Shown here: positions 3,341 through 49,796 of the stretch, in pieces
Layout: every line of letters begins with the position of its first letter
Numbering within the stretch: the first letter of the stretch is position 1
From: an uncultured virus (IMG/VR IMGVR_UViG_3300009605_000022)
Lineage: Duplodnaviria; Heunggongvirae; Uroviricota; Caudoviricetes
Virus record (IMG/VR): IMGVR_UViG_3300009605_000022
Reading direction: 5' to 3' (one strand)
DNA: 64,000 nt
Made by a program: the position numbers and the translations under genes
The notes under the pieces: generated by a model
The model's database searches: none
What the model was told of the DNA's origin: nothing
The model's input: the letters and a program-made list of their open reading frames with translations, nothing else

Positions 3341-3379
3341 TGACGATAGCTTTAAATACAATGAGGAGATATATTTAAT

Positions 3380-41095: not shown

Positions 41096-41186
41096 GTTTA
41101 TTTCCTTCCATATTTTCTTGGGCGAAGTGTGAACTTCTTTTTACTAAATCCAAATTTAGTATCTAACCATACTATTATTTCTCGTA

Positions 41187-41624
41187 TCATTGTTTCTTCT
41201 CCGGTGGCCAATAGTATTCATACTCGTTTATGATTGCGAGGTCCGTTTGTGCATCAGCATCGAATCGTTGTTTATAAAAGTCATAGTCCTTACGTAGTAA
41301 GTTCATTCGATGTGACTTGTGCAGTTCCGGATAGCCTAACCACTGAGGGAATACTATCGGCTGTTCTATCTCATATAGTTGCATCGTGTTGTTGTAACCA
41401 CGTGCAATCCATTCTTCTATCATTACGTTAGTGTAATGTTTGAGAGCGTTCTCATAACCACGCCACATTAAACGTGCGGGGTGGTTAAGCCAACCTTTCA
41501 TAGTGTAGTCTGGGCTGAGTGAGTTGATGAGTTGCATACCCTCTACTCTCTGCTTACCGAGACGACGGTAGTCTAAAAGTTTGGCGACTGTCTTAAAGTT
41601 TTTTGTTGGTAAAAATGTTTGCAT
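41187..41624 (-). CDS. Pyrimidine-dimer DNA glycosylase family protein (DenV-like)
   Basis: MQTFLP...LDYRRLGKQRVE...HPA..MW.GY...HKSHR.NLLRKD. Confidence 0.85.
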   Translation of the reverse strand: MQTFLPTKNFKTVAKLLDYRRLGKQRVEGMQLINSLSPDYTMKGWLNHPARLMWRGYENALKHYTNVMIEEWIARGYNNTMQLYEIEQPIVFPQWLGYPELHKSHRMNLLRKDYDFYKQRFDADAQTDLAIINEYEYYWPPEKKQ

Positions 41625-41681
41625 ATTTTCAATTCCTATTTGTTATATTTGATATATATTGAAATATCTATATAAAGGTTG

Positions 41682-42004
41682 TGGTGCACGAAGAGAGAAC
41701 GGCTTCTCAGTTTATAACTCAAAGATACCCACTAAAGGGTCTTCTTTGTTTAGCCTCTTATCACGAAGAAGGAAAGGCCACGAACGTTTTATACCATAAT
41801 GATTAGGCTGTTCATGTAAACTTTAGGTTCGCTTTTGTGTCTGAGATAATTACGTGCTAACTCCATAGTCTACGTTTCGCTCTGTGTCTCAGCTAATTGG
41901 TTCTCTTTACGACTAACACCAATCCGTTAGTCACCTATGTATCTTTCATCGCTATGCGACGTTCTCGATACAAATGAGTTTCAAAATTCAAAGTCCCCGT
42001 GCAC
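41682..42004 (-). ncRNA. Candidate ~320-nt structured ncRNA with closing stem and pseudoknot
   Basis: No ORF; 11-bp terminal helix (41994-42004 with 41684-41694) containing G-U pairs only on the minus strand; internal hairpins; H-type pseudoknot. Confidence 0.65.
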
Positions 42005-42013
42005 TGTTTGGTG

Positions 42014-42079
42014 GGATACAAGCTGAGTAGAGGAAAATACAAACCGACTCACAGTTAAATAAATTCTCAACTTATATCC
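42014..42079 (-). other. 14-bp RNA stem-loop
   Basis: GGAUAUAAGUUGAG pairs with CUCAGCUUGUAUCC; two G-U pairs fix the minus strand. Confidence 0.7.
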
Positions 42080-42087
42080 TGTCACCC

Positions 42088-42165
42088 TTAGCTAAAGTAA
42101 ATGAATATCCACATCCATAACACAACAAAGAAACCCAACAGTATTATCCATTGGGCTTCTTCCAT
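42088..42165 (-). CDS. 25-aa membrane microprotein
   Basis: MEEAQWIILLGFFVVLWMWIFIYFS; AAGGA upstream. Confidence 0.45.
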   Translation of the reverse strand: MEEAQWIILLGFFVVLWMWIFIYFS

Positions 42166-42185
42166 GTGCGGTGGTCCTTTCAGTC

Positions 42186-44303
42186 TCAAACTTTTATCAC
42201 CTTTCTTATTATTTTGCTTACCTCAGTAGATAACTTCTCGGTATCGTCAACAATTACATAGTTGGTAAACATCTGAGCCATACTTGATTCACGTGCACCT
42301 GAGATACCTATCTGAATAACACTCCAACCTTGTCCTTCTATATGTCTGACACACTTCTTAGTATGTGCGATTCCATCGAAGTGTCTGTAGTTTTTAGCTG
42401 AGGGCTCTCCATCTGAGATAACAATCATAAGTCTGTTACTACCCATTGATGGTGATTCAGCTTTTACTCTGTCAGCTGAGGCTAAGATAGCCATACCGTC
42501 TCGGTTCTCTGACCGAGCTCTCATAGCTCCCATAGCTTTTAAGTCACTCTTATAAGTTGGTGACCAGTAACAAGACATGTTTGTCTCACCGGTTCCATCC
42601 CAATCGTAACCGTCAGCAGTGTGACCATAAACCCATAAGTTTAGTTTGTCATTATCTTTGAGTGCTTCACGTATAGCGATTGCACTCTCACGTGCTTTTT
42701 GCATTTTGTATGAACCCATGCTACCTGACTCGTCAACTAAGAGACATACATCTAATGGTTTGTCTTCGTCAACAATAATGTTTTTGAATAAGTCAGTTCG
42801 ACCGAGGGGTATCTTATGTAACATACGTTTATCTAATCTACCTCTTGGTTGGTTGCGAATAGTGTAGGCTTGAGTGTTACCATAGAGTTGTATACGTTTC
42901 TTCAGTTGACTGATGCTCTGTTTCATTCTTGATACACCGTTGTCGTATGAATACTTGGCGTCGGTATGACTCTTTTGGTTTCTCCATGTAACTTTAGTTC
43001 CTTGTTTTAAACCGAGAGCTCTACCTGTGTCCCACTTTTCTTCGCTATACATAGTGTCTTCTAACTCTGTGATAGCTTTTTCTAAGTCTGTGCTGATAGT
43101 ATCTAAGTCTGCACTGTAGTCAGCCATCTCAGTTGATGCACTCTCTACTCCGTCCATGATAGTTCGCATAGGTCCGGCTCTATCTTCATACTTTTTGTCA
43201 TCGGTAGCTTTCTGAACTAATTTATCTAAGATGTCATCTAACTGACTCTCAGTTAATAATTCTTTTGTCTTATCATCCCAATCATTCATAAGCCTATCCA
43301 TTTCAGCTTCAGCTTTTTCTTTGGGTGATGGACCATCCTTTGCATCCTTCTCAGCTATATCTTTTGCCAACTGATTCATATACTCATAGATAGTTACAGT
43401 TGCTTCCCACATACTTTCTCGGTTGTTGTTTGAATTGACTAAAGCTCGAGCAAAGAACTGAATGTGATTCGCATGTCTTTTCTTTCTCTCTTCATCTAAA
43501 GCTGAGGGATATCTAACTAAGGCCAGTAAAGTATTGATTACATCACCGAACTCATTTACTTTTTCCATCTTGCTTCCATGCTTATCGAAGTAATGCTCTT
43601 TCACTTTTGCAATGTAGTGAGTGAACCCACCATGTGTTTTACCTAACTGAGACTCGATGAACTCATCTTCGAGTATGTTAGCTATATTATGTATAAGCTT
43701 TTCTTGAGGTGGTCTCAGCTTATGGTCATAAGCATATACTCTTTCTAATTTTAATAAAGGCTTACTGTAAACTAAATGTAACTTCTCGTGTATAGCAAGA
43801 CCAGCAACAATATCTAACTTAGAATCGTCTCGGTCTAACAATGTGCCGTCAACATAGATTAATCCACGGTTGATGTTGGAATAACTTTTCTCGGTTGCAT
43901 AGTTTAATACATGTTTTACAGTTGGGTCTACAACTTTACAGAGAGAATCAAGATGAGCTTTGTGTTTGACTAATCTTTTTTCTTTGTCCGCTCTGTCGAA
44001 GTGAGATGATGCACCCCACATAGAGGTCATAGCTCCGACGCCTCGGTTCCACCATGAACCACCACTACCCCACGTGAATCCGCTACTTCTACCATAAAGG
44101 TCACCAGTAGCTGAGACAGTTGGTGCAGTTGAACTGTATGCTTTTGCTACGTGTGGAGTGAGGAAAGGGTCGACTGTATTGTATTTGATACCACAGGCTT
44201 TACAGTTCCCGTGACCATCATCCGCAGTCCAGTCATCACATGCGTCACAGAAGTCATCTTCCGTGTCCTCAGCCCAATCGTCTATTGAATGTCCGTAATC
44301 CAT
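42186..44303 (-). CDS. VWA-domain protein (CobT/NorD-like, MoxR partner)
   Basis: MIDAS LVDESGSM, ISDGEP; N-terminal HEKLH and ILED. Confidence 0.9.
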   Translation of the reverse strand: MDYGHSIDDWAEDTEDDFCDACDDWTADDGHGNCKACGIKYNTVDPFLTPHVAKAYSSTAPTVSATGDLYGRSSGFTWGSGGSWWNRGVGAMTSMWGASSHFDRADKEKRLVKHKAHLDSLCKVVDPTVKHVLNYATEKSYSNINRGLIYVDGTLLDRDDSKLDIVAGLAIHEKLHLVYSKPLLKLERVYAYDHKLRPPQEKLIHNIANILEDEFIESQLGKTHGGFTHYIAKVKEHYFDKHGSKMEKVNEFGDVINTLLALVRYPSALDEERKKRHANHIQFFARALVNSNNNRESMWEATVTIYEYMNQLAKDIAEKDAKDGPSPKEKAEAEMDRLMNDWDDKTKELLTESQLDDILDKLVQKATDDKKYEDRAGPMRTIMDGVESASTEMADYSADLDTISTDLEKAITELEDTMYSEEKWDTGRALGLKQGTKVTWRNQKSHTDAKYSYDNGVSRMKQSISQLKKRIQLYGNTQAYTIRNQPRGRLDKRMLHKIPLGRTDLFKNIIVDEDKPLDVCLLVDESGSMGSYKMQKARESAIAIREALKDNDKLNLWVYGHTADGYDWDGTGETNMSCYWSPTYKSDLKAMGAMRARSENRDGMAILASADRVKAESPSMGSNRLMIVISDGEPSAKNYRHFDGIAHTKKCVRHIEGQGWSVIQIGISGARESSMAQMFTNYVIVDDTEKLSTEVSKIIRKVIKV

Positions 44304-44824: not shown

Positions 44825-45988
44825 TTAGTCCCCCATAGATTGAATGACTTGTATAACTCTAACTCTCTCAGTGTCGTCACCTGCTTGAACAGGGTAGAAT
44901 GGTAGACAGGTATGTTTGAGTGCATCGATTAAACTCATGCCGTCAACTACTAACTCAGCTACTGCTAAACACATACGTGTTGAGACAGCAGTCGTAAGTT
45001 CGTCTGAACTGTGTAGGTCACGCACTCTCTTAGCGAAGTCTACTATCTTCTCTGCTGAGTAGTCATCTAACTGAGGGTTACGAATCATAACTAATTCTTT
45101 TTCTTTACTCATAGGTAAGTAGTCTAACTCATAGATACCACCTGTGAACCTATCTTTCCATGCTCTATCTAAATCATGAGATGCACCGAGATACTCTCGG
45201 CCTATGTTAGCAGTAGCATAGAAGAATGCTTGACTGTCAACTGAGACAGCGTCAGCGTCTTCACTCTCATCGAGTGCTAAATACTTTTGACCATCTAACA
45301 CTGGCATGAGAATATTAGCTAAGTCACCTGTTCGGTCACGGGTAACCTCATCTAACATAATGAATGAGTTCTGTTGAATTGCTTGGACAAACCGAGATGG
45401 TTTGAACCATGTTCCTGCTTCTTTGTCATACTTAGTATCACCTAACAGTTTAGCTGAGGGATTCATAGTATCACCAAAGTTGAAAGAATAAAATTCTTTA
45501 TTGGTAATGTCTGCTAATATCTTACCGAGACTACTCTTACCACATCCTGATGGACCTGTGATGAGAATGTTCTTACCTCGAAATATATTGCGTAACATTG
45601 TGTAGAATGTAATGTTATCGGCGAACTTAAATTCCTCCGGTATTTGAACTGAGCCTCTTAGCTTAGCCATTACTGTTTGCTTTTCTTCTACGGGTTCCGG
45701 TTCACTGGCCGGTGCCTCTACTTGCATGGGGTCTTCCTCAGTTGGTTCGTCTTTACCGAACAAACTGCCTAAACCCTCGTGAGTCGTTTCTGATTCCATT
45801 GATTCTCCAGTATCATCTTCCTTTATAAAGGTATCGGTCATTGGACTGAGACCTGCTTTCCATCTCTTTATACCACGGGTATCGGCTGAGACATGCCATA
45901 TTCTTCCGTCACCACCTTTCTTCTCATGTCCTAAGTCATACCATGTCGCGGACTGAGTAGGTGATGGTCTTGTTTTTCTTTCTGCCAT
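44825..45988 (-). CDS. MoxR/CbbQ/CobS-like AAA+ ATPase
   Basis: GPSGCGKS, MLDEVTR, ATAN, DRAWKDRF, STR. Confidence 0.9.
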   Translation of the reverse strand: MAERKTRPSPTQSATWYDLGHEKKGGDGRIWHVSADTRGIKRWKAGLSPMTDTFIKEDDTGESMESETTHEGLGSLFGKDEPTEEDPMQVEAPASEPEPVEEKQTVMAKLRGSVQIPEEFKFADNITFYTMLRNIFRGKNILITGPSGCGKSSLGKILADITNKEFYSFNFGDTMNPSAKLLGDTKYDKEAGTWFKPSRFVQAIQQNSFIMLDEVTRDRTGDLANILMPVLDGQKYLALDESEDADAVSVDSQAFFYATANIGREYLGASHDLDRAWKDRFTGGIYELDYLPMSKEKELVMIRNPQLDDYSAEKIVDFAKRVRDLHSSDELTTAVSTRMCLAVAELVVDGMSLIDALKHTCLPFYPVQAGDDTERVRVIQVIQSMGD

Positions 45989-47345: not shown

Positions 47346-47375
47346 AAAAAAAGTTAGTTTATATAGGGGTGGGTA

Positions 47376-47575
47376 GGAGGATTTAATGTATACCTCCAAA
47401 CGCATTATGCCACTACATAGTAGATGCGTTACCAGTCTAACCTTCCTCCAGCAGTTGCTTCTCGGTTGGTTAATCCTGTGCCTTAGTCCGTGGCGGACTT
47501 GTTCGGCCATACCCGATTACGGAAGAGCTACTTCCATAAATGTAAAAGTGGGCAGTTTTCTGAGTTGCCCAGCTG
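47376..47575 (+). ncRNA. Candidate ~200-nt structured RNA (strand uncertain, + favoured)
   Basis: Five consecutive hairpins; plus-strand TTTATATA at 47358-47365; stem 47549-47571 extends by G-U pairs only on +. Confidence 0.4.
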
Positions 47576-49746: not shown

Positions 49747-49796
49747 TACCAACGGGTGTGTCTATATAAAGCTTTTTTCACACGTGTGGAAAAGCT
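49747..49796 (-). promoter_or_regulatory. Type-B promoter plus boundary palindrome, copy 4
   Basis: (+) TACCAA..CTATATAAAGCTTTTTTCACACGTGTGGAAAAGCT. Confidence 0.8.

Follow-up and report, generated by a model that had tools for sequence, protein, structure and literature searches.

A conserved structured RNA with a bulge-helix-bulge hairpin and a mosaic of modules, located downstream of a MoxR/VWA gene pair in uncultured marine viruses

Introduction

GOLLD and ROOL are long, intricately folded non-coding RNAs that are often borne by phages and whose biochemical role is unknown; known ornate RNAs have a fixed architecture. In the maturation of archaeal tRNAs, the CCA end can be added after transcription. 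In the bulge-helix-bulge (BHB) motif, each cut falls after the second letter of the bulge, in tRNA numbering.

The BHB motif has been defined, and one example in an untranslated region (UTR) is known, in the parts of PMC7714728 on which we draw: the 5' UTR of Haloferax volcanii HVO_1309 contains a BHB intron that is cut by the endonuclease, and a 46-nt ring has been found, its role being unknown. The same parts of PMC7714728 describe the archaeal 16S/23S rRNA processing stems and the cbf5 mRNA intron as matured by the endonuclease, with circularised products, and name as non-tRNA, non-rRNA substrates one UTR intron and one mRNA intron. The TACK archaea, including Thaumarchaeota, have a splicing endonuclease of broad specificity that accepts relaxed motifs, according to portions of PMC7714728 and PMC4090602.

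Here, we describe an RNA element from the viral record IMGVR_UViG_3300009605_000022 (IMG/VR), of which we have analysed one 64-kb stretch, referred to as "the window", and we compare it with its relatives from marine viral and metagenome contigs, numbered with the prefix L. We regard it as all but certain that the element belongs to a real, conserved and unclassified family of structured RNAs; full-text literature searches have found no paper describing this family. The carriers are probably uncultured marine tailed viruses of archaea.

Results

Extent and genomic setting of the element

The structured RNA element occupies 406 nt of the minus strand (42087-41682): it starts 1 nt 3' of the stop codon of a small membrane-peptide ORF, and its 3' limit lies 4 nt upstream of the BRE/TATA-like promoter of the next gene. 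The first-pass annotation had confined the element to 41682-42004, an extent that has to be revised, with 83 nt more upstream (42005-42087) belonging to it. On the minus strand, the order is MoxR, VWA (the "cobS/cobT" pair), the small membrane-peptide ORF, the RNA and a glycosylase gene:

44825-45988, minus strand: gene for a MoxR-type AAA+ ATPase; PHROG label 'porphyrin biosynthesis'; PDB matches to Midasin, CbbQ/NorQ and, weakly, CobS
42186-44303, minus strand: gene for a VWA/CobT_C protein of 705 aa, with the VWA/CobT_C domain at the C-terminus
42088-42189, minus strand: small membrane-peptide ORF, conserved, with a translation ending in PPHMEEAQWIILLGFFVVLWMWIFIYFS and stop
42006-42087, minus strand: 5' module, a BHB hairpin (alignment A2, consensus fold, covariance model R1)
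41682-42005, minus strand: large domain, the element of the first-pass annotation, with base helices P1-P3 around a mosaic of modules
41669-41677, minus strand: CTTTATATA, TATA-box-like promoter motif of the glycosylase gene, marking the 3' limit of the element
41187-41624, minus strand: pyrimidine-dimer glycosylase gene, the next gene after the RNA

The translation of the small ORF reads ...WMWIFIYFS up to its stop, with its end at 42088. The gap that had been described as ORF-free thus contains, at 42088-42189, a conserved small ORF, and is ORF-poor in the stretch 3' of it. The same small peptide ends 0-3 nt upstream of the RNA in relatives; where it is missing (L008, L017, L024, L026 and L028), the stop of the VWA gene itself takes the place of its stop. 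The distance from stop to motif is -1 to 3 nt in 37 of 38 distinct contexts (31 of the 38 by script, plus six rows, at 1-3 nt, that were re-read in the frame of the peptide), the exception being L044, with 7 nt. Since the stop codon abuts the motif, a terminating ribosome would cover the 4-bp helix, and processing could in this way be coupled to translation.

The predicted folding energy of 41682-42004 (323 nt) is -87.1 kcal/mol, with a z-score of -2.85 and 1 of 100 shuffles equalling it; the opposite strand over the same positions has a z-score of -2.30 in the shuffle comparison. For the whole 406 nt, the corresponding values are -114.2 kcal/mol, -3.59 and 0 of 100.

Several further observations concern the neighbouring genes. 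The 'CobT' protein (42186-44303, minus strand) has an N-terminal CxxC...CxxC stretch that resembles a zinc ribbon, a linker rich in Gly, Ser and Trp, and HEKLH (HExxH) before the VWA domain. Its 'CobS' partner is nearer to the MoxR ATPases of the Midasin and CbbQ/NorQ types than to solved CobS (E 5e-18 vs 3e-4), and the label of cobalt chelatase is therefore doubtful. Within the small membrane-peptide ORF, the complementary codons for EEA and for FF form a 15-bp hairpin (42127-42162, minus strand), which scored as terminator-like, has a weak RsaA match (25.7 bits vs 50) and, by eye, has a similarly pairing counterpart in L003. A very basic peptide of 30-33 aa (MIREIIVWLDTKFGFSKKKFTLRPRKYGRK in the window, at 41098-41190, minus strand; L026, 5518-5617; L035, 3624-3715) is encoded by the first gene past the promoter flanking the RNA in relatives that have no glycosylase gene, and follows the glycosylase gene in the window; it is a possible candidate for an RNA-binding partner. 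A pairing of RNA and VWA protein like that of Y RNA and Ro60 has been rejected: sequence searches of Pfam and the PDB give only VWA/CobT_C and no TROVE domain, and the RNA tracks the stop codon of the small ORF, not the VWA gene.

Relatives of the element

Searches with the VWA protein have retrieved 2, and then 10, viral contigs together with 63 marine metagenome contigs. In nearly all loci with enough downstream DNA, a related element is located 3' of the VWA gene, and no empty site, i.e. a locus without the element, has been seen among the examined relatives. The full-length matches include 31 distinct complete elements from marine metagenome and viral loci, with RNA lengths of 166-743 nt (179-756 nt when 13 nt of the promoter are counted); 9 more are incomplete, three of them (L024, L033 and L040) being cut in the 5' module by the contig end and six ending before the 3' end of the element.

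The covariance model R1, which was built from the alignment of the 5' module, has 44 matches in 70 sources, with exactly one 5' module per locus; some of the matches are very divergent (24-44 bits). In the window, R1 scores 76.3 bits at 42006-42087 and finds no second copy within the 64 kb. A search of IMG/VR for the 15-mer of the hairpin loop gave 108 stretches; among the 80 loci listed, 4 match R1, all of them contigs already in the set, and the other listed loci are chance matches.

The reading as an unclassified large non-coding RNA is supported by the searches of Rfam and by the strong covariation among 28-36 distinct relatives. At the gathering score, cmscan of the window has no match in the region 41682-42087; with E values up to 10, it has only three weak matches, all outside this region; and with E values up to 0.5, it has none in 8 related loci (58,235 bases). 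Among the covariance models of Rfam 15 (RNase P, SRP, group I/II introns, GOLLD, ROOL, HEARO, OLE and others), none matches the element. In cultured-phage records, a DNA search with the region has no match, and protein searches with the VWA protein, terminase and polymerase have only distant matches, with 20-28% identity. The stretch is held in 20 sequencing runs from 13 studies, so the viruses that carry it appear to be common; no RNA runs are on record among the 20.

The 5' module has the geometry of a bulge-helix-bulge motif

The 5' module is composed of an outer pair (G42087-C42006), a 4-bp helix, two staggered 3-nt bulges, a 14-bp stem and a variable loop, which contains a small hairpin and the conserved GUCGGUUU(UGCUCAU). 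Its parts are located as follows:

42083-42086, minus strand: central helix H, 5' strand GGUG, pairing with 42010-42013
42010-42013, minus strand: central helix H, 3' strand CACC, pairing with 42083-42086
42080-42082, minus strand: 5' bulge ACA (A-N-A in relatives; A2 columns 6 and 8 are invariant)
42007-42009, minus strand: 3' bulge AAA, always 3 nt in alignments A2 and A3
42008-42080, minus strand: 73-nt piece predicted from the BHB geometry to be excised, possibly as an RNA ring

The comparison rests on alignment A2, which holds 28 distinct sequences, and on a set extended through R1 to 36 distinct rows. In the 28 sequences, 98.5% of the cells are paired and 10 of the 19 pairs have double changes; none of 500 shuffles reaches the observed paired cells, double-change pairs and cells or covariation score, and one of the 500 reaches the observed value for further pair types, while slid controls are 33-44% paired. 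The central helix is paired throughout (100%) in each of the 34 distinct sequences with letters at these positions, with compensatory changes in three of its four pairs, and both bulges are 3 nt long in every row of A2 and A3. The inner helix h' has 9-14 pairs, 97.5% paired, with double changes in 8 of 14. Divergent members keep the same geometry with other letters: GGCG/CGUC in L073 and CGUG/CACG in L053. One U.G wobble of the long stem never varies and G.U pairs are frequent, which identifies the RNA strand as the gene-sense strand.

The bulges are located on opposite strands, each 3' of its own strand of the central helix, as in the definition of the BHB motif; in the 28-sequence alignment, the 5' bulge is inside the 4-bp helix and the 3' bulge outside it. 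This polarity presumably fits the canonical 37/38 tRNA intron, with a bulge 3' of each central-helix strand and the 3' bulge abutting the anticodon stem. The outer helix h consists of a single contiguous pair, where the definition of the motif asks for two or more; across the 36 distinct rows, this pair is GC in 27, AU in 5 and UG in 1. In 24 of the 31 elements, P1, the closing helix of the large domain, follows the outer pair without a gap and, in a proposed model, could stack beneath it. The gap between the outer pair and P1 is one unpaired A in the window and a 34-nt hairpin in the L002 and L044 group.

A relaxed form of the geometry with an inner stem of at least 8 pairs occurs at 85 places in the window and at 75-118 in five simulated sequences; with at least 10 pairs, the numbers are 9 and 12-20. 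Because the relaxed geometry is so common by chance, the case rests on its conservation and not on the shape seen in the window. From this conserved geometry, and allowing for the uncertainty about the host, we judge it probable, by a small margin, that the 5' part is a substrate of the splicing endonuclease, with predicted cuts that we take to fall, by the BHB rule, between 42081 and 42080 and between 42008 and 42007.

Other candidate functions of the 5' module have been dropped: a guide RNA of the H/ACA or C/D type, as the hairpin has neither boxes nor a pocket; antisense pairing of the loop with the AUG region, as the loop in the window does not have the needed letters; and re-pairing of GGUG, after excision, with the CACC of ...GUGCACCA, for which there is no covariation in L007 and L053.

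The large domain: fixed base helices around a mosaic of modules

The large domain is closed by three base helices, which surround the modules:

41994-42002, minus strand: P1, 5' strand GCACGGGGA, pairing with 41686-41694 (UCUUCGUGC); 9 bp
41986-41989, minus strand: P2, 5' strand GAAU, pairing with 41697-41700 (GUUC)
41975-41978, minus strand: P3, 5' strand CUCA, pairing with 41706-41709 (UGAG)
41938-41972, minus strand: module M1, consisting of a stem, an internal loop and GUCGC-AUA-GCGAU; present in 6 of 31 elements
41895-41932, minus strand: module M2, in which the loop of hairpin 41932-41911 forms an H-type pseudoknot with 41901-41895 and GAGAACC comes next; found in 15 of 31 elements

The pairing of the ends of 41682-42004 had been proposed from the window alone, and the relatives bear it out: P1 (42002-41994/41694-41686) is conserved and covarying, with double changes at positions 5, 8 and 9, and its letters in L053 and L054 are wholly different yet paired. 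A small internal loop separates P1 from P2, in which the first three of the four pairs have double changes (GAGU/GCUC, UGAU/GUCA, AGAU/GUCU) and the change at the fourth is mostly one-sided. Between P2 and P3, there is a conserved asymmetric loop, with UUUGAA opposite (A)AGCC. P3 reads CUCAG/CUGAG, with variants such as CUCG/CGAG and CUUAG/CUAAG in relatives. The proposed pairing of AACUCA with UGAGUU is present in the letters of the window; in relatives, the 5' strand instead pairs with the CUGAG before AAGCC, i.e. as P3. In 20 distinct rows, P1-P3 are 97.2% paired vs 79.7% when shuffled, with 81 vs 25 double-change cells, where the counts for P3 lean towards pairing because its register was picked by best pairing. 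Compensatory changes are thus found among the homologues, where the first-pass annotation had suggested that they be sought, in the 5' module, in P1-P3 and in M2. A K-turn in M1 or in the P2/P3 loop has been rejected, as the letters, by eye, do not fit the G.A/A.G rule.

Two of the inner structures seen in the window recur as modules. UGUAUC(GUCGC/GCGAU)GAUACA corresponds to M1; its core is the same in L006 and L003, and in L003 the outer stem is changed to AACC/GGUU. In 12 distinct copies of M2, the four outer pairs of hairpin 41932-41911 are paired in 12 of 12, all four with double changes; the four pairs of the pseudoknot with 41901-41895 are 91.7% paired, two of them invariant and one compensatory (UA 8, CG 2). 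By eye, L034 and L070 have UGGGUU/AACCCA in place of the AUUGGU/ACCAAU of M2 in the window. The letters of CUGAGA/UCUCAG, AGCCU/AGGCU and ACCC/GGGU are likewise present in the window, and the interior of L006 differs there.

Module counts among the 31 elements are 6 for M1, 15 for M2, 13 for M3, 17 for M4, 12 for M5 and 14 for M7. Modules are duplicated, and their order and number vary between relatives: M1-M2-M3-M4 in the window, M5-M4-M3-M2 in L071 and M5-M2-M1-M4-M3-M7 in L053. L006, the closest relative (VWA protein 79% identical), has the 5' module, P1-P3 and M1 in common with the window, and its other interior is different. A fixed frame, composed of the BHB hairpin and P1-P3, with swapped, duplicated and reordered modules is unusual, and offers a natural system for asking what the modules bind.

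Two observations concern the borders of the modules. Unitigs from four marine runs, all of them DNA, break or branch at 42007, 41936-41943 and 41711, which are module borders; this suggests, as a reading of the assemblies, that co-occurring strains have the 5' module and M1 in common with other interiors, and since the content of the unitig joints is undefined, they speak for strain mosaics at most and not for splicing. A near-direct repeat flanks the large domain on the minus strand (CACCAAA before P1, 42013-42007; CACCACA after it, 41686-41680), the copy after P1 being CACCAAA in L003, L012 and L071; the repeat may have been left by an insertion where the 3' cut of the hairpin is predicted.

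Promoters and host

The motif CTTTAWATA occurs in 24 copies in the window vs 3.4 expected (about 7-fold), before many genes and usually after AAAG or AAAC. An ATG that opens an ORF of at least 40 aa is located 19-24 nt past the box at 7 of 44 TTTAWATA sites, vs 2.5% of random positions; such a distance is that between an archaeal TATA box and the start of a leaderless message. For sigma-70-like sites, the window shows no enrichment (45 vs 42.7). The gene content includes a family B polymerase, a B12-type ribonucleotide reductase, HSP20 and the cobS/cobT-like pair, and fits that of the marine archaeal tailed viruses described in parts of PMC8651126 and PMC7678222. From the geometry of the promoters, with which this gene content fits, the host is probably an archaeon. 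An alignment search for the VWA protein in a prokaryote genome collection gave no match, and a protein atlas searched for host taxa gave viral clusters only.

A promoter-like AAAAGCTTTATATAG is located at 49771, 48976 and 48232 (minus strand) and at 3350 and 57844 (plus strand), with an ATG 20-22 nt after it, again at leaderless spacing; upstream of its three minus-strand copies is an operator-like palindrome, TTTTCCAC-NCGN-GTGAAAA, and the ORFs there start with MTK or MSK. A manA RNA (RF01745) is located at 47366-47539 (minus strand), at full length and with 64.6 bits vs a gathering score of 55.2, overlapping a doubtful 74-aa ORF. The manA family is known from cyanophages and marine bacteria, so that, with an archaeal host, this copy would lie outside the known range of the family. 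A resolvase-like protein matches the bacterial-type RecU; whatever this protein and the manA RNA say about the host would favour bacteria.

The 3' end of the element

The last four letters of the element are those that had suggested a tRNA-like end:

41682-41685, minus strand: ACCA 3' of P1, without conservation across the family

The stem that resembles an acceptor stem, followed by ACCA, is present in the window as described; in the family, free ACCA is found in only 14 of the 31 elements. Among the 29 elements of the main group, the letters after P1 are ACCA in 14, GCCA, GACA, AACC and ACCC in 1 each, and none in 11, which form one clade and have no letters between P1 and the AAAC of the promoter; in L053 and L054, the letters that correspond to ACCA are paired inside P1. 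As already noted from the window, there is no T-arm, nor is there a T-loop; ARAGORN makes no call in the window or in 45 related loci, and cmscan has no tRNA-clan match in the window or in 8 relatives.

Discussion

Proposed processing and its alternatives

On the minus strand, no TTTAWATA occurs between 41676 and 48231; with no TATA-type promoter to itself, the RNA is most likely transcribed as the tail of the message that encodes MoxR, the VWA protein and the membrane peptide. The best reading, to which we give even odds, is that the host splicing endonuclease cuts the BHB motif of this tail, parting the message from the RNA and freeing a 73-nt piece. Under the proposed mechanism, the host tRNA-splicing endonuclease would cut both bulges, at 42081/42080 and at 42008/42007; this would sever the message 6-9 nt past its stop codon, free the 73-nt hairpin, which the host ligase may circularise, and define the 5' end of the large domain. 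This domain would then be a stable scaffold, and the interchangeable modules displayed on it would bind host or viral factors or act as decoys for them; this role as scaffold or decoy is a conjecture. A broader form of the proposal is that the viruses use the tRNA-splicing enzymes of the host to make non-coding RNAs from the tail of a message, i.e. a ring of 70-90 nt with the conserved GUCGG loop and a scaffold of 100-650 nt, whose modules would be decoys or sponges for host RNA-binding factors while abundant marine archaea are being infected; the shuffling of the modules would be the record of an arms race, and cutting would be coupled to upstream translation by the ribosome melting the motif. 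This broader form is speculative, and we consider it unlikely.

The same arrangement could be a structured 3' end that has nothing to do with tRNA-splicing enzymes, i.e. a hairpin and closed domain acting in cis, whether as a site for processing by a double-strand-specific nuclease, as a barrier to 3' exonucleases or as an insulator that separates the upstream operon from the next promoter, with the staggered bulges serving some other protein. This would be the default if the host were a bacterium, and it suits an element that is terminal in its operon, with the stop codon flush on one side and the next promoter on the other; the host is no more than probably an archaeon, the geometry of the bulges is common by chance in a single sequence, and the invariant letters of the stem (the U.G wobble, AAG and the A-N-A bulge) suggest a protein that reads sequence over an enzyme that reads shape. 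However, a barrier or nuclease site does not explain why the exact 3-4-3 spacing is kept while the letters of the helix change, nor is the interior of 100-650 nt with its recurring modules explained; it is also the TATA-like box with leaderless spacing that is enriched, and not the sites of the sigma-70 type. We regard such a structured 3' end as a minority prospect, with roughly one chance in its favour for three against. The element could also be the leftover of a mobile RNA or DNA, the hairpin being a degenerate intron of the archaeal type and the domain an insertion that gains and loses modules and is of little or no use to the virus. Its size range of 166-743 nt, its permuted and duplicated modules, an interior that differs even at 79% identity of the VWA protein, the near-repeat around the domain (CACCAAA before P1, CACCA(C/A)A after it) and the DNA unitigs of co-occurring strains that break at the module borders 42007 and 41936-41943 are in keeping with such an origin; the presence of the element in nearly all relatives with enough downstream DNA, the clear structural selection on the base helices and several modules and the lack of an empty site among relatives are not, and we consider a mobile leftover improbable.

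The least probable alternative, to which we give very little weight, is the one that the first-pass annotation had put forward, namely a tRNA-like decoy, in which P1 and A-CCA would mimic an acceptor stem and make the RNA a target for maturation, tagging or binding by enzymes that act on tRNA (RNase P, tRNase Z, the CCA-adding enzyme or a synthetase). The 9-bp P1 of the window is indeed followed by ACCA, an A directly follows P1 in 26 of 29 elements, several divergent lineages, among them the L002 group (56% VWA identity), have retained ACCA, and CCA can be added post-transcriptionally where it is not encoded, as stated in part of PMC7714728. Against this, free ACCA is confined to 14 of 31 elements, with 11 lacking it and its letters being paired in L053 and L054, and neither ARAGORN (window and 45 loci) nor the Rfam families for tRNA, tmRNA and tRNA-like structures recognise the element; with neither a T-arm nor a tRNA or tmRNA call, the tRNA-like reading loses most of its support, and the possible addition of CCA after transcription leaves it a slight chance.

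Excision of the hairpin by the splicing endonuclease is the reading with which we proceed. If it is true, the viral family would join the very few substrates of the archaeal enzyme known outside tRNA and rRNA; it would also be the first family of large structured RNAs to be linked with uncultured viruses of marine archaea. Even on a more guarded view, the new RNA family is well supported, and its alignment and covariance model could be deposited.

Comparison with known systems

Like tRNA-like structures, about half of the members have paired ends followed by ACCA; unlike them, the viral family has no T-arm, D-arm or anticodon arm, and its ACCA is dispensable. The likeness to the rRNA processing stems and the cbf5 intron lies in the action of the host splicing endonuclease on RNAs other than tRNA, which is here predicted; in rRNA, the motif is located within the stem that closes the released RNA, whereas in the viral element P1 is free of bulges and the motif is located beside it. 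As in HVO_1309, the BHB motif is located in an untranslated part of a protein-coding message. In contrast to HVO_1309, where this part is the 5' UTR, the viral motif is at the 3' end of the message, flush with the stop codon; its outer helix would consist, in our model, of one pair and a stacked long-range helix; and it is joined to a large modular domain, its cutting being predicted. Finally, the element resembles GOLLD and ROOL in being a long, intricately folded non-coding RNA, and differs from them in matching no Rfam family and in a size and module order that vary several-fold across the viral family.
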